A stretch of 60,478 bases of DNA, the filler included. It is 7 parts of 7 records of this genome, joined end to end, with 100 filler letters (N's around TTAATTAATTAA, not from the genome) between each part and the next. Parts side by side here need not be neighbours in the genome. Positions count along the whole stretch, not along the records: positions 18,900 to 28,493 come from SRR31156797_16185; 6 more parts are not named here. One strand, 5' to 3'. Numbering within the stretch: the stretch's first letter is position 1; the number at the start of each line of letters is the position of its first letter. The position numbers and the translations under genes are program-made. Shown here piece by piece: positions 4,185-54,596 of this stretch. Below the pieces are notes generated by a model. It was not told the origin of the DNA, did no database searches, and was given only the letters and a program-made list of their open reading frames with translations.

Positions 4185-5270
4185 TTATTTTTTATTTAGT
4201 TTGAATTTTTGCCAAGGTTTTATATCTTTTAAAAATCTTTTGTTAGTTTCAGAAACTTTTCCTATTACATTGCTGTTTCCATCATTTTCAAAATCCTTAA
4301 GAGCTATGTGCAACTCGCCTTTGTATCTTTTATAATTATTATTCTCGATATAAACATCCCCATATTTAATATCTCTGGTATTTTTTGCTAAAATATCAGC
4401 TTCTTTAAATTTCACTCTGGGCATAGTTGACCTTACAGAGAACTCTCCTGCATCTCCTCTATAGAAGTGTAACTCTTTAAATGCAATATCACTTTCAACT
4501 TCACTTAAAGTATACTCAGTTTCAATATCCAGAGTCACAAGACCTTTATCCAACGGACTTAATGCTTTCAGCTCATTCTCACTTGCAAAACAGTTAGCTA
4601 TGATTACATCATCTACAAGATTAGTATAAAACAGGTCTTTTGCCTGTACATCAATTGGCAGTTCTCTATGCTCTTCCAGTGTGCATAATCCTTCTGAAAC
4701 TTCCCATGGTCCAAAACTTGCATTTTGTGAATTAACAAATGCAGCTACTCTTATTCCATGTTTTTTATATATTTTACTTGATTTGATAAAGTGCTCTCTT
4801 GAAAGACCTGATCTCTTTTTCGGATAAAAATTATGACAACCTAGTAATTTATGCATATCAGGATGAAAAGAAATTATGTTATCCAGATAAGCAGTGCCAA
4901 CGCTTACATTTAATTCAATCATTAAGTTTTCAGGATTAAAAGTCATCAATGCTTCTGTGTTTCCATCAAATCCCTCATCTAATCTAAATCCATCTACTCC
5001 CATTTTGCTGAAAAAAGAAAGATCATCATATTTAATCCCAAGCTCTTTAAATATATGAGGAGCTACATCAGCTATTATTTCAAAATTTTTACTTTTAGCA
5101 TGAGTAGTCATCTCTTTAAATTCAGAGATTATTTGTTCTTTATTTCCTTCAACTGATAATAGACAAGTGAATATTCTTGAGAAGCCGTATTTAGCAGCTA
5201 AATCAATATATTTGATATTATCTTCAAGATTTGCATGTTCAGGATAAATTGAAATTCCTAATTTTCTCAT
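4185..5270 (-). CDS. DUF871 / MupG-family phospho-glycosidase (TIM barrel plus cyclophilin-like C-terminal domain)
   Basis: LGISIYP, FTCL, GFRLDEGF, CHNFYP, GLCTLEEHR, YKGEL motifs; directly downstream of PTS IIC. Confidence 0.85.
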   Translation of the reverse strand: MRKLGISIYPEHANLEDNIKYIDLAAKYGFSRIFTCLLSVEGNKEQIISEFKEMTTHAKSKNFEIIADVAPHIFKELGIKYDDLSFFSKMGVDGFRLDEGFDGNTEALMTFNPENLMIELNVSVGTAYLDNIISFHPDMHKLLGCHNFYPKKRSGLSREHFIKSSKIYKKHGIRVAAFVNSQNASFGPWEVSEGLCTLEEHRELPIDVQAKDLFYTNLVDDVIIANCFASENELKALSPLDKGLVTLDIETEYTLSEVESDIAFKELHFYRGDAGEFSVRSTMPRVKFKEADILAKNTRDIKYGDVYIENNNYKRYKGELHIALKDFENDGNSNVIGKVSETNKRFLKDIKPWQKFKLNKK

Positions 5271-5272
5271 CT

Positions 5273-6634
5273 TTATGCCCTCTCTAGAGCTTCTTCACCA
5301 ATTAAAGATTGCTCATAAATTCTTAAGAATGGAATATATAATAGTGTTGATAAAGCTATTAATGCAGTACTTAATAACAGCGCCATAATATTGAAGTTTG
5401 TAGCAAACAGTGCGGCAATTGGTCCCGGAGTTGTCCATGGTACCAGAGTGATAACTTTTCCAACCAGACCACTTTTAACTGCTACCCATGTAATAGTTGC
5501 ATTAATAATAGGTATAGTTATAAATGGTATAAACAGAATAGGGTTCATTACTATTGGTGAACCAAATATAATAGGTTCGTTTATGTTGAATAAACCAGGT
5601 ATAATTGATAATTTCCCGATTGATCTCAGATGTTCAACTCTGCTTCGAGACATTGCAATAGCTAATCCTAAAGTAGCTCCAGCTCCTCCCAAATAAACAA
5701 ATGCGTCAAGGAACCCACCGGCGAAAATTTTAGGCAGCTCCTCTCCTGCTTGTAGAGCAGCTTGATTTGTAGCCAAATTTGATAAAATTATAGGATTAAT
5801 AATAGCTACAACTACGTTAACTCCGTGAAGTCCCGCAAACCATAATACATGTACAACTATAATAACAGAGATAACAGCCGGTAAAGAATCAGATGCAGCA
5901 ACAAACGGTTGGAATAATTTCATAATTAACTCAGGAATCATCATGTTACCCATATTTTGTACTAAAATATTAATTGGATTAAAGATTAAGATAACAGCTA
6001 CAATTGGAGTTAATAATTCAAATGATCTTGCAATTGCAGGTGGTACAGAATCAGGTAATTTAATAGTAAGCTTACTTTTTACCATTATTCTAAATATTTC
6101 AATTGATACAAATGCACAAATAATTGCAGTAAATAATCCTTTTGCATCCAGATATCTAGCATCCATTACAGGCATCCATCCACCATCAGCTATGTGAAAT
6201 AATGAAGGAGCTCCACTTGCCTGACCTACAGGTAACCAATCTAATTTAGCAGAAACCAATAAGAACGAAAATAATGATAAGAATCCACCTGTAGTATTAT
6301 TTAAGCCGTATTGAGATGATAAGCTATAACCAATACCATAGGAAACAAACAGTGACATGATCCCCATGCTTACATAAAATGGTTGAACCCAATTAGCTTT
6401 ATGAGCTGCCATTAAGTCAGCGTACCATTTCATATAGATAGGATTTTTAACACCCTCTGACAGATATTCAGATGATACAGGCAGGTTAACTAATAATAAT
6501 ACAATTGAGCCTACTATCAAAAATGGCATAGTGAAAACAAATCCATCTTTTAATGCAGTTAAGTGCTTATTTGTTGCCATTTTACCAGCTAAAGGTAATA
6601 ATTTACTCTCTACAAAATCCATTATTTTATTCAT
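5273..6634 (-). CDS. celB: PTS lactose/cellobiose/chitobiose-family IIC component
   Basis: Multi-TM; KLPDSVPPAIARSF, WFAGLHG, GGAGATL, PGLFNINEPIIFG, VPWTTP motifs. Confidence 0.92.
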   Translation of the reverse strand: MNKIMDFVESKLLPLAGKMATNKHLTALKDGFVFTMPFLIVGSIVLLLVNLPVSSEYLSEGVKNPIYMKWYADLMAAHKANWVQPFYVSMGIMSLFVSYGIGYSLSSQYGLNNTTGGFLSLFSFLLVSAKLDWLPVGQASGAPSLFHIADGGWMPVMDARYLDAKGLFTAIICAFVSIEIFRIMVKSKLTIKLPDSVPPAIARSFELLTPIVAVILIFNPINILVQNMGNMMIPELIMKLFQPFVAASDSLPAVISVIIVVHVLWFAGLHGVNVVVAIINPIILSNLATNQAALQAGEELPKIFAGGFLDAFVYLGGAGATLGLAIAMSRSRVEHLRSIGKLSIIPGLFNINEPIIFGSPIVMNPILFIPFITIPIINATITWVAVKSGLVGKVITLVPWTTPGPIAALFATNFNIMALLLSTALIALSTLLYIPFLRIYEQSLIGEEALERA

Positions 6635-7187: not shown

Positions 7188-7287
7188 NNNNNNNNNNNNN
7201 NNNNNNNNNNNNNNNNNNNNNNNNNNNNNNNTTAATTAATTAANNNNNNNNNNNNNNNNNNNNNNNNNNNNNNNNNNNNNNNNNNNN
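7188..7287. other. Artificial contig spacer
   Basis: 100 nt of N with central TTAATTAATTAA; composition changes across it. Confidence 0.98.
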
Positions 7288-13604: not shown

Positions 13605-13704
13605 NNNNNNNNNNNNNNNNNNNNNNNNNNNNNNNNNNNNNNNNNNNNTTAATTAATTAANNNNNNNNNNNNNNNNNNNNNNNNNNNNNNNNNNNNNNNN
13701 NNNN
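13605..13704. other. Artificial contig spacer
   Basis: N run with TTAATTAATTAA. Confidence 0.98.
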
Positions 13705-17811: not shown

Positions 17812-18799
17812 GTGCCTAAGATCACCCACCGAATAAAAAATGTATTATGGATTCTCTTTCTGACTGTTGTGCTTTTTAAATTATTTCAATTTTACAAGAC
17901 GGAAGCATCAACCAACAATCAGGTGTTAATTGTCTCTGGAATTCTATTTGCTACCAACGTTTTTCTTCTCTATTTACACCACAGGAAACAACGTTTGATT
18001 TTTTTCCTGGAAGGATCACTGGACGCTCTCGAGCTACCTGTAACCACAACCGACATGAACATGAAATGGGTTTTTGTTAATAAAATCACTGAAAGCCTGC
18101 TTGTGCAGCGCAACTTAAATAAAAGGAACGTTATAGGAAAACATTGTTCCAACTGGAAGGCTGATATCTGCGAAACGGAAAACTGTGGTATCCGTTGTTT
18201 GCGCAATGGAAAAACTAGAACACATTACAATCAGGACGTCCCAAGCCAGCCAAGTGTTTATATGCAAGTTGACACCCAATATATCACTGATGACAGTGGT
18301 AAGAAAATTGGGCATGTAGAATTTGTAACGAATGTAGATGCTTTAAAGCAGCTAAAAACTGTAGTTGAAGTTCTTGCTCCAACATCTGAGACCTTGCTTG
18401 ACCTTTCAAGGGGAGTAGCCATAAACTCAGAAGAACTTTCAGAAAGATCTGGGTCATTGACCGCTTCATCCGAAGAAATGTCTGGGAATATGAATGGTGT
18501 GTCTTCGGCAATGGAGGAGTCTACTACCAATGTAAGCATGGTGGCTTCAGCCGGAGAGGAAATGTCGGCAACGATAACTGAGATATCAGAAAATACTGAG
18601 AAAGCCCGTTTAATTACAGAGGAAGCAGTTGCTCATTCCGCAGATACCTCGGATCAGGTTGATAAGCTCGGAGATTCTGTTGGGGAAATCGGCAAAGTAG
18701 TTGAGACTATTTCAGAGATTTCCGAACAAGTAAACCTTCTCGCATTGAATGCAACTATTGAAGCTGCAAGAGCAGGAGAGGCGGGCAAGGGTTTTGCTG
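17812..18799 (+). CDS. Methyl-accepting chemotaxis protein with two N-terminal TM helices and a PAS domain, 3'-truncated
   Basis: [27 protein letters not shown] signalling hairpin; GGAGG SD before GTG. Confidence 0.92.
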
Positions 18800-18899
18800 N
18801 NNNNNNNNNNNNNNNNNNNNNNNNNNNNNNNNNNNNNNNNNNNTTAATTAATTAANNNNNNNNNNNNNNNNNNNNNNNNNNNNNNNNNNNNNNNNNNNN
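18800..18899. other. Artificial contig spacer
   Basis: N run with TTAATTAATTAA. Confidence 0.98.
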
Positions 18900-18900
18900 T

Positions 18901-18990
18901 TGTCCAAGGCCGACTATAACCAATTGCCCACGACCGACGTTAGCACGTTGCCCACGGCCGACCCTTGCCGGCTGCCCTCGTCCAACATTC
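18901..18990 (+). repeat. 24-bp coding tandem repeat (4 visible units)
   Basis: Units at 18901, 18925, 18949, 18973; the CPRPT codons differ only synonymously (TGT CCA AGG CCG ACT / TGC CCA CGA CCG ACG / TGC CCA CGG CCG ACC / TGC CCT CGT CCA ACA). Confidence 0.92.
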
Positions 18991-19227
18991 TCAGCCGCCA
19001 TGTGTACTCCTCCACCACCAATGATGTATGAGTATGATATGCCTGAGTATTGGGATGATGAGGGATACTATGATTACTATGGTGAGGATGAGTGGTATGG
19101 CATGTATGATGCTGGTGAAGCCGGGTACTGGGAAGATGAGGTGGAGCAGGCTGCTTATGATGAAGAAGAATGGTACGATGATGAAGCCTACGATGAGTGG
19201 GACATAGATGATGAGGAGGAGTGGTAG
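18901..19227 (+). CDS. 5'-truncated putative RiPP precursor/substrate: tandem CPRPTxxx repeats plus acidic-aromatic C-terminal tail
   Basis: The frame of ORF 19000-19227 is open back to the contig edge: CPRPTITN CPRPTLAR CPRPTLAG CPRPTFSAAM CTPPPP MMYEYD...DDEEEW*; directly upstream of kinase/lyase/LanC. Confidence 0.85.
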   Translation, partial: CPRPTITNCPRPTLARCPRPTLAGCPRPTFSAAMCTPPPPMMYEYDMPEYWDDEGYYDYYGEDEWYGMYDAGEAGYWEDEVEQAAYDEEEWYDDEAYDEWDIDDEEEW

Positions 19228-19265
19228 AATTATAATTTCCTACAAAGGAAATGTTAACTACTGTA

Positions 19266-19300
19266 ACCGTGGGCCGTAAAACGCCCGCGGTAATTTTTTT
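19266..19300 (+). terminator. Stem-loop/terminator between precursor and modification genes
   Basis: ACCGTGGGC-loop-GCCCGCGGT (one G-U) followed by AA and T7. Confidence 0.75.
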
Positions 19301-19353
19301 CTGCACATTATCACTGTTTGTAAGGAGAAAGGATCATTTATCCTGCAGAGCTA

Positions 19354-20340
19354 GTGCAATATTTATTGCATAGAAATATCATATCCTCGTCAGAGGTGGT
19401 TGAACGCGGCGTCCAATTATCAGGTGATATACGTGAACGTTCTGTTTTGCAGACTCTTGCCATAGGGGGAGTGCCAGCCTACGTCGTCAAGCAGGCCCGG
19501 GCAGCAGAAACCATGGTAAATATCCATCAGGAATTAAAAGTCTACTCCTGCCTTGAAAAAATACCAGAATTGGATGGCAGTATTCCACCACTGATAGCAG
19601 CAGATGTGGACAGGGGACTGCTGGTGCTTGGCTGGGTAGGAACTGCTGATTTGCAGTATTCTCATATGCCAAAAGATGAAATGTCCAGTATGCTCGGAGC
19701 TTTGACGGGCCAGCTGCATTTTTTAACCAGGGAAGTCGCCGGTCTTAGCGGTATAAGTGAAAGGCCATGGGTATTGTCTTGCCTTGGAAAGAATCCTCGA
19801 TGGCTCCCTGAAGAGTTACCTGAGGTCATAGGACGTGCCTCAAGAGTTGACCTGTTGGAAACTGGATTGCTATATGGGGAGAAGGGCTGGAAGCCGGATG
19901 CTCTTATCCATGGTGACTTGAAGCAAGAGCATTGCCTGCTGGTTGACAATGATGCACAGATTGAACTTTGTCTCATTGATTGGGAACTGGCAGGCTATGG
20001 TGATTCAGCCTGGGATGTAGGCAGTATAATCAGTGACATCCTGTTTGATCGAGGGTATGAGGCGAGTGGTGGTGGATATAGTGCCGCCGAAATCATTGAA
20101 GAGGGAGACATAGGCAATTTTTTCCGTCTCTATAGTCAGCATTGTATGGTAGACAGTGACTTTTTGTACAGGGTAGCATTATTTACCGGCGCTCGCCTCC
20201 TGCAGACAAGTATGGAGTCTGCCGCAGCGTATGGAATGGGAGCATCATCTGGAGTCGACATGCTTGTGTCCATGGCAGAACAAATTTTCAGCGATCCCCA
20301 AGCGTTTGCCCAACTGCTCAGTTATGGAGCAACAGTATGA
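19354..20340 (+). CDS. APH/choline-kinase-fold phosphotransferase, putative LanK-type Ser/Thr kinase
   Basis: YVVKQ (ATP Lys), LIHGDLK, LIDWELAGYGDSAWDVG; ATGA overlap with next gene; true start may be slightly upstream. Confidence 0.85.
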   Translation: MQYLLHRNIISSSEVVERGVQLSGDIRERSVLQTLAIGGVPAYVVKQARAAETMVNIHQELKVYSCLEKIPELDGSIPPLIAADVDRGLLVLGWVGTADLQYSHMPKDEMSSMLGALTGQLHFLTREVAGLSGISERPWVLSCLGKNPRWLPEELPEVIGRASRVDLLETGLLYGEKGWKPDALIHGDLKQEHCLLVDNDAQIELCLIDWELAGYGDSAWDVGSIISDILFDRGYEASGGGYSAAEIIEEGDIGNFFRLYSQHCMVDSDFLYRVALFTGARLLQTSMESAAAYGMGASSGVDMLVSMAEQIFSDPQAFAQLLSYGATV

Positions 20341-21293
20341 GTAGGCAAGCGGGGCGGCTGGATGACCAGGATCAACTGGGTAAAGCACTGATAAAGGCTA
20401 TTGCGTCGGTTGTTCAGCGCTACGGAAATGGCCCGCTTTCAGCGAACAAAGAAGAAAAACAAAAATTGATCAATTTGCTGTATCAATTTTGGTACACTCG
20501 TTCCGAGGGAGAGAAAGATTATCAGTCTTTCTCCCACCCTTTTTGGGATCAGATTTATCGAACTATGCACCAGGGAACCTACCAATGGGAAACCGGGTGG
20601 AAGGTCGATAAAGTTTCCTCAGCGGGAAGAGTTCAGGCTTTTTTGGGTGATGAGGTGCGATTGCTTGATCCTGGCGATTACATCTCTTTGTCTCATCCAG
20701 GATCAATGCCGGCTCCGGGGACTGAGATCGAGGTTGTAGCCCGCCGGGAAGCAACAGAGCCGCAAGAGGGGTTTTGGATCACCCATTCTACTGCCTGGAG
20801 CGGAGTGCAGCCTGTAATAGTTCGTCTTTATTGGAACACTTCTCCAGAGGGCGCTGCCTGTCTTGTTGAACAGATCACTCGATTTATTCCAGATAGCATT
20901 CCTTATAGTTTGAAACTGCCTGTTGATGGAGCTGGTTTCCAGCGTGCAGATGCTGCTGTATTCTACTTTCAGGGAAGTTTTTTTTCCCAGCTGCGACCAC
21001 TGCTGCATGCTGTCCATCGAACCATGCAACCGTATCTCTGGCCTGAGGTACCGGGATTAACCAAAGAGTGTGAACCCGGATTGGGTTTGGCTGAAGATCC
21101 TCTTGAAGAGTTTGAAAGTTTTGGTTTGCATCGCTGTCGTTTGATTGCCGAAGGCGTGCTGTCAGCAACGGCATCTGACTGGCACGACCTGCAGGAGGTC
21201 GGTGCGGTCGTGAAGGCATATTTAGCAACAGCAGGGCTTGATCCTGATCGCCCCTACCTTAACCTCTATGCCAGGACAGATTATGACTGGTAG
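20337..21293 (+). CDS. HopA1-like domain protein, putative LanY-type phosphoSer/Thr lyase
   Basis: VRLYWN, YSLK, RADAAVFY, GLGLAEDP, ESFGLHRCRLIAEG, GLDPDRPYLN pattern of the HopA1 family. Confidence 0.85.
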   Translation: MSRQAGRLDDQDQLGKALIKAIASVVQRYGNGPLSANKEEKQKLINLLYQFWYTRSEGEKDYQSFSHPFWDQIYRTMHQGTYQWETGWKVDKVSSAGRVQAFLGDEVRLLDPGDYISLSHPGSMPAPGTEIEVVARREATEPQEGFWITHSTAWSGVQPVIVRLYWNTSPEGAACLVEQITRFIPDSIPYSLKLPVDGAGFQRADAAVFYFQGSFFSQLRPLLHAVHRTMQPYLWPEVPGLTKECEPGLGLAEDPLEEFESFGLHRCRLIAEGVLSATASDWHDLQEVGAVVKAYLATAGLDPDRPYLNLYARTDYDW

Positions 21294-22638
21294 AACCAAA
21301 TTCCGGCAGCACGTAGTGCAAAGTAATATGAAAGAGCGCGCGTCCTTTTCGAACCTGCGCACTGCAGAAAAGATCGGGCAGCGTCTGGTGCACTCCGCTG
21401 TCTGGCACGATGGGCGGTGTACTTGGACCGGCGATGATGTCAAGCTGATCAACGATGAGTGGCTGGTTATTCATCAAACTGTCGATCCTTATCTTTATTC
21501 TGGTACTGCTGGTATTGCATGGTTTCTTACACTCTGTCATGAGGAAACACATGGTAAGGGGATGAGACGGGCTGCCATCGGTGCAGTTCGACAATCATTG
21601 GCCCTTTTAGAACTTCACGATAACTCTGATTCGTCGTTGGGCTTATATGATGGATTAACAGGGATTGCCCTTGTGGCCTTTGCTGCAGGCCGTCGACTTA
21701 ATGAGCCTCCACTTATTACTGCTGCTCAATTACTTGTCAAAAAGATCAGTGACCGTGTAGAGGCAGAGCAAATAGGCAATGCTGTTGATTTTATTTCCGG
21801 GGCAGCTGGCATTATTACGGGACTTTTACAGATTGCCGGAGAAACCAACGATCGGTCTCTTTACAGGCTGTGTGAAAAAGTGGCGGACCAGTTGTTGAAG
21901 AAGGCACATCACACGAGTTGTGGTATGTATTGGCCCGAAGAAGGACTGCAACGTAACGATATCGGACTATGCGGCATGGCCCATGGCATTTCCGGTGTTG
22001 CCTATGCTCTCATGGAGTTGGCTGCTGTTACCGGTAATGAGTTATATCTGAGGGCTGCTGCCCAGAGTTTATTGTATGAGCGAAGCTGGTTTCATTGTGG
22101 TGAGATTAACTGGCCAGATAATCGTGGCTCCGATGAGACGCAAACATCTGCTGTGGAGCAGGAACTCGTTTATCCAATATATTGGTGTCATGGTGCGGCA
22201 GGGGTAGGGTTAGCCAGGCTGCGCGCCTATCAGTTGACAAGTGATCCGCTTTATCTGGCTGAGGCGACGGCCGCACTGTATGCAAGCTCTCGTTATGCAA
22301 AGCGAATCCTTACTGAGACCAGAAATAAACGACAGCTGTCGCACGATGTCAACATGAGTGTCTGCCATGGTCTTGGCAGCATCATTGAATTGTTTGTATA
22401 TGCATCAACTGTACTGGGAAATGACGAATTCTATCGCCGAGCATGCTCCATCGGTGCGTTTAGTGCCAGAGCTTCGGCCAGGGAACAGGGGAAATGGCGG
22501 TGTGGGATTCAGGATGGTGGGGAGGCGCCTGGATTGATGCTGGGACTGGCAGGTATTGGTTGTACTTTTCTCCAACTTCACAATCCTTCAGGGTTGCGAC
22601 CGGTTGGTCTGATGAACCTCGGCACTGCTTATTGCTAG
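21283..22638 (+). CDS. Stand-alone LanC-like lanthionine cyclase
   Basis: Seven GxxG repeats (LYSGTAG, LYDGLTG, ISGAAG, GMAHGISG, WCHGAAG, CHGLGS, LMLGLAG); Zn ligands in WCHG and CHG and catalytic His of AHG intact; ATG at 21283 overlaps the lyase stop. Confidence 0.9.
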   Translation: MTGRTKFRQHVVQSNMKERASFSNLRTAEKIGQRLVHSAVWHDGRCTWTGDDVKLINDEWLVIHQTVDPYLYSGTAGIAWFLTLCHEETHGKGMRRAAIGAVRQSLALLELHDNSDSSLGLYDGLTGIALVAFAAGRRLNEPPLITAAQLLVKKISDRVEAEQIGNAVDFISGAAGIITGLLQIAGETNDRSLYRLCEKVADQLLKKAHHTSCGMYWPEEGLQRNDIGLCGMAHGISGVAYALMELAAVTGNELYLRAAAQSLLYERSWFHCGEINWPDNRGSDETQTSAVEQELVYPIYWCHGAAGVGLARLRAYQLTSDPLYLAEATAALYASSRYAKRILTETRNKRQLSHDVNMSVCHGLGSIIELFVYASTVLGNDEFYRRACSIGAFSARASAREQGKWRCGIQDGGEAPGLMLGLAGIGCTFLQLHNPSGLRPVGLMNLGTAYC

Positions 22639-28493: not shown

Positions 28494-28593
28494 NNNNNNN
28501 NNNNNNNNNNNNNNNNNNNNNNNNNNNNNNNNNNNNNTTAATTAATTAANNNNNNNNNNNNNNNNNNNNNNNNNNNNNNNNNNNNNNNNNNNN
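28494..28593. other. Artificial contig spacer
   Basis: N run with TTAATTAATTAA. Confidence 0.98.
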
Positions 28594-48447: not shown

Positions 48448-48547
48448 NNNNNNNNNNNNNNNNNNNNNNNNNNNNNNNNNNNNNNNNNNNNTTAATTAAT
48501 TAANNNNNNNNNNNNNNNNNNNNNNNNNNNNNNNNNNNNNNNNNNNN
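48448..48547. other. Artificial contig spacer
   Basis: N run with TTAATTAATTAA. Confidence 0.98.
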
Positions 48548-54496: not shown

Positions 54497-54596
54497 NNNN
54501 NNNNNNNNNNNNNNNNNNNNNNNNNNNNNNNNNNNNNNNNTTAATTAATTAANNNNNNNNNNNNNNNNNNNNNNNNNNNNNNNNNNNNNNNNNNNN
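54497..54596. other. Artificial contig spacer
   Basis: N run with TTAATTAATTAA. Confidence 0.98.

Follow-up and report, generated by a model that had tools for sequence, protein, structure and literature searches.

The window analysed here (the whole stretch of 60,478 nucleotides) is divided by six identical spacers, N44-TTAATTAATTAA-N44, into seven contigs, and because the contigs are joined artificially at these spacers, gene neighbourhoods that extend across them are artificial. On the contig at 18900-28493, the last codons of an S8-family protease (subtilase) gene encode a tail of 68 residues dominated by acidic and aromatic side chains, and genes for a kinase, a phospho-Ser/Thr lyase and a LanC-type cyclase lie beside it (Table 1). 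This tail is the subject of the present analysis, and its role is most likely that of masking the charge of a cationic repeat array which precedes it in the protein.

The open reading frame (ORF) with the tail lacks its 5' end, which is cut off at the contig junction (18899/18900); the tail therefore terminates a far longer protein. The remainder of the S8 gene was not found elsewhere in the window. Translation of 18901-19227 yields 108 residues, consisting of four CPRPT-type repeats with five Cys, a T-PPPP hinge and the 68-residue tail. Judged by its sequence, the part encoded by 18901-19020 is presumed to be a lanthionine core region at the C-terminus of the truncated subtilase. A separate small ORF starting from the ATG at 19000 was considered and rejected, because the reading frame runs on unbroken from the conserved repeat array. 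A truncated chemotaxis-receptor gene (17812-18799) lies before the spacer and is no true neighbour of the tail gene.

Table 1. Features of the locus and of related loci (positions are those of the window unless a locus is named)
Feature	Sequence	Coordinates	Strand	Basis or remark
Acidic/aromatic tail of 68 residues and stop codon	window	19021..19227	+	tail 19021-19224, stop 19225-19227
Tail motif [DE][EY]W[YT][DG], first copy (DEWYG)	window	19087..19101	+	motif count
Tail motif [DE][EY]W[YT][DG], second copy (EEWYD)	window	19165..19179	+	alignment and motif count
End of the cationic Cys/Thr repeat array and T-PPPP hinge	window	18901..19020	+	5 Cys, 5 Arg, no D/E
Artificial contig junction (N44 + TTAATTAATTAA + N44)	window	18800..18899	.	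cuts the protease gene
Spacers	window	7188-7287, 13605-13704, 18800-18899, 28494-28593, 48448-48547, 54497-54596
Terminator-like hairpin between protease and kinase genes	window	19266..19301	+	9-bp stem, 7 GC pairs, T-run
APH-family kinase (LanK-like)	window	19354..20340	+	PF01636, 2.4e-12, above cut-off
HopA1-family phospho-Ser/Thr lyase (LanY-like)	window	20337..21293	+	PF17914, 3.8e-27
LanC-type cyclase	window	21238..22638	+	PF05147, 7.9e-57
Enzyme-linked genome loci	L001, L002, L003, L005, L007, L015, L016, L017, L058
Propeptide paralogue	L001	4564-4857
Propeptide paralogue	L002	353-640
Propeptide paralogue	L003	9911-10189
Propeptide paralogue	L007	2710-2991
Propeptide paralogue	L015	9884-10258
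Propeptide paralogue	L058	9983-10348
Propeptide paralogue	L016	4755-5102	-
Propeptide paralogue	L017	15172-15636	-
Neutral Cys-Pro-Ser/Thr repeat protein (example)	L088	837-2885
Neutral Cys-Pro-Ser/Thr repeat protein (example)	L099	3903-5462
Neutral Cys-Pro-Ser/Thr repeat protein (example)	L103	4761-5492
Neutral Cys-Pro-Ser/Thr repeat protein (example)	L114	3574-5457
Neutral Cys-Pro-Ser/Thr repeat protein (example)	L136	4266-5603

The tail and the protease that carries it

The composition of the tail was counted by script, and the hand count of an earlier sequence-only reading was matched exactly: 31 D/E, 13 Y and 6 W, with no S, T, C, K, R or H (in full: E 17, D 14, Y 13, W 6, G 5, A 5, M 4, and one each of P, V, Q and I). 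The micro-motifs described in that reading do recur, YW[DE][DE][DE] twice and [DE]EW four times, and the final residue is Trp. The boundary with the repeats is as sharp as had been claimed, the 35-residue repeat part holding five R and no D/E. With the composition of the S8 part in 27 homologues as the background, the probability of finding no S/T/C/K/R/H in 68 residues is 1.5e-9, and those of finding at least 31 D/E and at least 19 Y/W are 8e-14 and 4e-12, respectively. The observation is real and far from chance. A DNA tandem repeat beneath the tail was looked for and none was found. Chance low-complexity expansion was considered as the origin of the tail and rejected, because the composition is kept across phyla and the charge is tuned. 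The 108-residue fragment had no match in Pfam, and a search of the ESM Atlas with the tail returned no usable match.

It had been implicit in the earlier reading that the protein is a short lanthipeptide precursor. This premise had to be given up, since the homologues identify a subtilase of ~690 residues. Among proteins of 59-189 aa the fragment had no homologue, and the search among longer proteins gave ten matches, all of 627-693 aa and all with PF00082, in which an N-terminal part and the S8 domain are followed by 12-19 Cys/Thr units and then by an acidic-aromatic tail. Over all searches the homologues were S8 proteins of 616-804 aa. The closest relatives, L001 (from a metagenome-assembled genome (MAG) of Desulfobulbus) and P0002, are complete S8 proteins (690 and 693 aa); they share 87-88% identity with the window protein across the full fragment, and the S8 membership of the latter, of which the window holds the last 108 residues only, is taken from this identity.

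PF00082 (5.3e-30) is the sole Pfam domain in the full-length homologue, the active-site residues D181, H221, N319 and S395 (Asp/His/Asn/Ser) are invariant in 62 sequences, and among sequences with a solved structure the best matches are to classical subtilisins (BPN', 1.6e-13). AlphaFold2 was run on L001 with a 17-sequence alignment, which gave a mean predicted local distance difference test score (pLDDT) of only 40, and the model from a 62-sequence alignment was used instead. In the latter, residues ~20-470 are confident, 312 of them with a pLDDT of at least 90, and Foldseek matched the model to pro-subtilisin E and ProN-Tk-SP, propeptide included. Residues 475-690, comprising the repeats and the tail, had a pLDDT of 34-44, and the prediction neither folds them confidently nor docks them on the catalytic domain; values so low are compatible with disorder but are no evidence for it. 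No signal-peptide-like hydrophobic stretch was present in the first 60 residues of the S8 protein. The protein is zymogen-like and probably made in the cytoplasm. PADLOC gave a generic subtilase match for the S8 part and none for the kinase, the lyase or the LanC.

Conservation of the tail, on which the sequence-only reading had made its case depend, was then read from the relatives. The tail is present in all nine enzyme-linked genome loci, in 20 of 20 inspected S8 C-termini and in five metagenome loci; loss of the tail in close homologues was not observed, since every enzyme-linked homologue examined has it. The composition is kept in 31/31 S8-borne homologues measured, with 32-133 residues after the last Cys. 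Pooled over 27 tails, D accounts for 16.3, E for 14.4, Y for 15.8, W for 6.0 and G for 13.9% of the residues. The most strongly excluded class is that of the basic residues (K/R/H 0.2/1.0/0.8% vs 3.3/5.3/1.8% in the S8 part), and their exclusion is general. The claim that every residue the enzymes could modify is excluded holds for the tail in the window but not across the relatives, in which S/T/C are merely depleted (3.0/2.0/0.2% vs 7.1/6.4/1.9% in the S8 part). The tail sequence is poorly conserved apart from the motif [DE][EY]W[YT][DG], which occurs in 20/27 tails, mostly near the C-terminus, and whose second copy in the window (EEWYD) forms the best-aligned column block in the tail alignment. 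The WY dipeptide was observed 32 times, against 18.0 +/- 3.7 in shuffled tails. One S8 homologue, L084 (2-1090), has an extra acidic/aromatic stretch inside the repeat array besides the terminal tail.

Modification genes and candidate substrates at related loci

The kinase has the HGD and DWE motifs, and its match to LxmK of NCBIfam is weak (40 vs a cut-off of 315 bits). The start of the lyase gene overlaps the stop of the kinase gene by 4 nt. The best NCBIfam match of the LanC is the LanM C-terminal domain, and the motifs AHG248, WCHG316 and CHG376 are present; we take them to correspond to the acid/zinc ligands in NisC.

The lyase by itself, used to scan genomes, gave no match; it has 2441 relatives in the representative library. 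Scanned with the S8 alignment, the genomes yielded 78 loci in many phyla, archaea included, and in nine of these the kinase, lyase and LanC genes lie downstream of the S8 gene (the L001 locus terminates within the lyase gene). The nine come from MAGs, namely one of Desulfobulbus, one of the Gammaproteobacteria, two of the roseobacter group, one of Cyanobium and four actinobacterial ones. Cys + Ser/Thr units together with an acidic-aromatic tail were found in exactly these nine of the 78 loci. In the remaining loci, S8 genes that are complete to the stop codon have C-terminal modules of unrelated kinds (propeller-like WSxWExLGG, GTPVxxD, Cys/Tyr repeats) or none at all; L062 and L075 are truncated.

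Across the nine loci, the window contig and a further locus, L006 (Acidimicrobiia MAG), only five genes are conserved, namely those for the S8 protease, the kinase, the lyase, the LanC and a propeptide paralogue. In the same set no ABC transporter, export, membrane-fusion or metal-related gene is conserved, nor is a short conserved precursor ORF found among ORFs of at least 90 aa. The propeptide paralogue is a stand-alone S8 propeptide, a small acidic protein of 92-154 aa, in 8/9 enzyme-linked loci; elsewhere among the S8 loci there is a copy in the truncated L075 and a weak match in L006 only. It may be a trans inhibitor or a chaperone of the protease. From ~11300 to the end of the L006 locus, the S8 relative there closes with a different duplicated Cys/Arg-rich module and a long acidic stretch rich in D/E/F/G, which may be an independent instance of an acidic tail joined to a basic Cys-rich segment; the contig stops before any downstream gene.

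The repeats are a candidate substrate of the three enzymes. All 336 of the 336 Cys-Cys intervals in the 27 homologues hold at least one Ser/Thr, as would be needed for one ring per unit. The Cys-to-Ser/Thr spacing is constant within lineages (4 in CPRPT, 2 in CPS), and that to the following Cys ranges from 1 to 8; sequence alone does not decide the direction of the rings. Given this alternation and the gene linkage, the repeats probably acquire thioether (lanthionine/methyllanthionine) rings through the three adjoining enzymes.

A metagenome scan with the lyase alignment gave 80 loci, and the order kinase-lyase-LanC was held wherever all three genes were detected; in L153, an exception, the kinase comes after the lyase and no LanC was found. 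Where the lyase is at least 43% identical, the upstream gene encodes an S8 protein with repeats and tail (L080, L081, L082, L084, L085). In L083, the gene upstream of kinase-lyase-LanC (4556-5863) encodes a protease of another fold, likewise followed by Arg/Lys-rich Cys/Thr units and an acidic-aromatic tail. Its residues 125-307 are CHAT/Peptidase C25-like by Atlas structure search (TM 0.76-0.83), an assignment made on a predicted structure only, and searches of Pfam, NCBIfam and PDB sequences gave nothing meaningful for this domain. If the predicted fold is right, the repeat-tail module appears to be portable between protease folds.

Where the lyase is ~27-36% identical, in soil, 31 loci have an upstream protein of 93-735 aa, rich in Cys/Ser/Thr/Pro and made of neutral Cys-Pro-Ser/Thr repeats, with 9-69 Cys. 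These proteins often end in Gly/Phe-rich stretches, and none of the five tested had a Pfam match. As candidate lanthionine substrates of protein size, they appear to make up a class not described before. The short ORFs of L098 and L158 were excluded as probable wrong-frame reads. By the filter applied, 44/80 loci have no Cys-rich upstream ORF, mostly with little upstream DNA or no kinase match, and the same filter also missed the S8 or CHAT-like substrates of L081, L082 and L083.

Charge balance and the role of the tail

Among the roles proposed in the sequence-only reading was that of an intramolecular charge partner for the Arg-containing repeats, and this role gained support from the comparative charge data and from the neutral-repeat loci, which served as a control. 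Charges were computed on the relatives, the array in the window fragment being incomplete. The repeat arrays have net positive charges of 6 to 44 and the tails net negative charges of 8 to 48, and the two increase in step. In a fit to the first 17 distinct homologues, net negative tail charge is 1.04 times net positive repeat charge plus 3.2 (r 0.79). Ten homologues found later by a search with the C-terminal region, and hence out of sample, gave a slope of 1.03 (r 0.975), and four metagenome loci gave +28/-31, +39/-47, +40/-48 and +12/-20. Over all 31 the slope is 1.07, the intercept 2.7 and r 0.92, the sums of the two charges lying within -8 to +2 in 30/31. The match holds at the extremes (+44/-46, +40/-48). 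Independent contrasts on the S8-domain tree gave r 0.58, with 13/16 of the same sign (p 0.007); with 30 sequences, r was 0.88, 19/27 contrasts had the same sign and 0/20000 permutations reached as high a value. For the protein of L083, a hand count gave about +13 for the repeats and about -15 for the tail.

The near-identical L081 (3516-5897) and L082 (2168-4582) are a small-scale example of array and tail changing jointly: one has an extra repeat unit (+39 vs +40), and its DYG-repeat tail is three residues longer (-47 vs -48).

In the 31 neutral-repeat loci, the net charge of the array is -5 to +4 and the net negative charge of the tail -2 to +1, i.e., the tail is not acidic; it comprises at most 4 residues in 12 of these loci and is otherwise Gly-rich or Thr/Pro-rich. 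The acidic tail appears solely with a cationic array. Since related cassettes adjoin tail-less substrates, a C-terminal tail is not a general requirement of the enzyme family.

We therefore favour, with slightly better than even confidence, the reading that the tail is a charge-compensating anionic follower which masks a cationic lanthionine-repeat array. In the S8 protease, the catalytic domain is separated from the tail by 10-24 Arg-rich Cys-Pro-x-x-Thr (or Cys-Pro-Ser) units. According to this proposal, the kinase would phosphorylate the Ser/Thr of the repeats, the HopA1-type lyase would eliminate the phosphate, and the LanC would close one (methyl)lanthionine ring in each unit by addition of the Cys nearby. 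The tail would stay unmodified and intrinsically disordered, its acidic residues cancelling the charge of the array almost one for one, with Asp/Glu pairing with Arg and Tyr/Trp stacking on the Arg and Pro of the repeats. The polycationic segment would in this way be kept neutral, masked and soluble in the cytoplasm during synthesis and modification, the latter of which would have to be cytoplasmic because the N-terminus is not signal-peptide-like. On deployment the tail might be removed or displaced, a speculation made by analogy with anionic propieces. Subtilisins generally favour aromatic P1 residues, and for this reason the protease may remove its own tail; such a cut, equally speculative, would expose the stapled cationic array.

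Several points weigh against charge masking. We infer ring formation and contact between tail and repeats from sequence, and removal of the tail from analogy. Charge balance leaves unexplained the ~23% of aromatic residues in the tails and the recurrence of [DE][EY]W[YT][DG] in 20/27 of them, both of which hint at a specific binding function. P0010 lies far off the line (+17/-40), the sole exception among 31. Just 19/27 contrasts agree in sign, and very short branches may inflate r; the sample also includes close kin (P0002/L001/L080, L081/L082, L016/L017). Moreover, the charge of the repeats, their length and the charge of the tail are collinear (Spearman 0.88 for repeat charge against repeat length, and 0.88 for tail charge against length). 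The match could reflect selection on the charge or solubility of the whole protein, without specific contact between tail and repeats.

The aromatic residues lead to the alternative, also put forward in the sequence-only reading, that the tail is a docking handle, whose aromatic motif would recruit the kinase-lyase pair and/or the LanC to the array in the manner of lanthipeptide leaders. The motif itself, the excess of WY/YW doublets over shuffled tails and the strict co-occurrence of tail and enzymes among the S8 relatives speak for it, as does the class V kinase CaoK, which is reported in a passage of PMC9486802 to recognise its leader through hydrophobic/aromatic residues. However, a fixed docking site would not require a tail that grows in length (32-133 aa) and in charge along with the repeats, the motif is missing from 7/27 tails, and related enzyme trios stand beside substrates with Gly-rich neutral tails or none (at most 4 residues in 12/31). 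The enzymes are also mostly acidic (in the window, kinase -22 and lyase -12), and therefore electrostatics would not favour binding of the tail. A predicted complex of kinase, lyase and tail (fragment residues 36-108) scored 0.20 and 0.08 against a mark of 0.34, which, without controls, weighs neither way. We regard docking as unlikely; it could hold jointly with charge masking.

Another proposal, which we consider improbable, is that of a cleavable pseudo-substrate or plug: the Tyr/Trp tail would fill the cleft of its own protease or be its first substrate, providing latency together with the N-terminal propeptide. The protein is zymogen-like in the model, with the propeptide docked as in pro-subtilisin, the stand-alone propeptide paralogue in 8/9 enzyme-linked loci suggests tight control of activity, and the many aromatic residues would suit the P1 preference of subtilisins. 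Yet AlphaFold2 did not dock the tail on the catalytic domain (pLDDT <45 for 475-690), a like tail occurs on the unrelated CHAT/C25-like protease, and a plug does not predict a charge match to the repeats.

It is no less doubtful that the tail is a retained segment of the mature protein, either a polyanion that binds Ca2+, metal, mineral or a target, or one of the two halves of a block polyampholyte through which self-assembly or condensation would be driven. Chains on which opposite charges are segregated tend to self-associate, and a D/E content of ~31% along with many Tyr residues would agree with cation binding, but no metal-binding motif or family match was found (in Pfam for the fragment, or usably in the Atlas), no metal-related neighbour gene is conserved, and this reading gives no reason why the acid content should equal the Arg/Lys content of the repeats. 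The weakest candidate, a C-terminal export or sorting signal such as that of a type I secretion system, would fit a C-terminal, acidic and disordered tail on a protein with no N-terminal signal-like hydrophobic segment, but is very improbable in view of the variable length and sequence of the tail, the neutral-repeat relatives that do without it and the lack of an ABC transporter or other export gene conserved across the loci.

Relation to known systems and further observations

The enzyme types (PF01636, PF17914 and PF05147) are those of class V lanthipeptides, and their genes stand in the order kinase-lyase-LanC at the loci with all three detected. Class V machinery consists of LanK and LanY as described in parts of PMC10604976 and PMC9486802, the latter stating for the cacaoidin pathway that kinase and lyase form a heterodimeric dehydratase; a section of a review (PMC12328550) names a LanC-dependent subgroup Vb. 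This subgroup, e.g., the Smo pathway, has a LanC cyclase in addition to kinase and lyase. The class V substrates known so far are short and begin with a leader at the N-terminus, whereas the candidate substrate here is a C-terminal extension, comprising 10-24 putative ring units and an acidic tail, on a protease of 616-804 aa, and the kinase lies far under the LxmK cut-off. The protein was not filed as a LanA, because it is not a short leader-core precursor. The 'class VI' lanthipeptides are distinct, being a streptococcal LanKC-like system.

A parallel to the tail is offered by the propieces of alpha-defensins and cathelicidins, in which an anionic segment counterbalances a cationic Cys-containing segment on one precursor. 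The charges of alpha-defensin propeptide and peptide are typically counterbalanced, according to a passage of PMC2803202, and for a cationic peptide, inhibition by an acidic pro-peptide is described in PMC6057973. These propieces differ in being N-terminal, eukaryotic and not rich in aromatic residues, and their cationic part is disulfide-bonded, not thioether-bonded. Removal of the propiece belongs to the defensin-type systems, and would extend to the present tail by analogy only.

Borosins join a catalytic domain and a modified C-terminal core/follower on one polypeptide, and cyanobactin proteases are subtilisin-like and read an acidic/aromatic AYDG signal. The window protein would share with the former the combination of a catalytic domain and a candidate modified C-terminal segment in one chain, and with the latter an S8 fold associated with short acidic/aromatic signals. 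In contrast to borosins, the fused domain is a protease and not a modifying enzyme; as for cyanobactin proteases, the S8 domain is nearest to the classical subtilisins, and no cyanobactin protease appeared in the best 60 of 91 matches. In the open full-text literature, subscription journals being outside the scope, we found no protease-borne Cys/Thr repeats beside a LanC, no neutral Cys-Pro-Ser/Thr repeat proteins and no such acidic tail. The tail is conserved and quantitatively tuned, and it belongs to a substrate type, apparently undescribed so far, of a known chemistry.

So far, lanthionine chemistry has been described for short peptides; should the repeats indeed be stapled, it would extend to large proteins, proteases in particular, and the tail would give a quantitative design rule of one acidic residue per basic core residue. 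Such a rule has so far been unused in lanthipeptide leader/follower biology and parallels the anionic propieces of animal defensins; it would aid the expression of polycationic stapled peptides. It would also provide a bioinformatic handle for substrates, namely a cationic Cys-Ser/Thr array with a charge-matched acidic tail beside kinase-lyase-LanC.

A broader scheme is conceivable, though we hold it to be rather more doubtful than probable. Several phyla may make protein-scale lanthionine products, in which two unrelated protease folds would carry 10-24 C-terminal thioether rings as a protease-resistant polycationic module for targeting or for binding membranes or nucleic acids. The tail would mask this module, the spare propeptide-like inhibitor would restrain the protease, and removal of the tail would arm a secreted or defence effector; in the larger soil set, neutral Cys-Pro-Ser/Thr proteins with up to 69 Cys would be stapled.

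Between the protease and kinase genes lies a terminator-like hairpin; the RNA fold of 19225-19310 has an energy of -25.3 kcal/mol (z -4.1). A similar hairpin follows the S8 gene in L002 (2760-2793), and a search after the S8 gene in L001 found none. The hairpin might set an excess of substrate over enzymes.

The S8 family is also found with other C-termini. The motifs HGNMCATD and YARNPNHP are conserved in L019-L065 (many of them cyanobacteria), L011-L014, L018, L036, L064, L053 and L068, and these members apparently have no signal peptide. Their C-terminal modules are interchangeable and include propeller-like WSxWExLGG, GTPVxxD, FG-GAP/VCBS-like and Cys/Tyr-rich CYYYYY repeats, which suggests that the family is a common protease with swappable binding or sensor domains.

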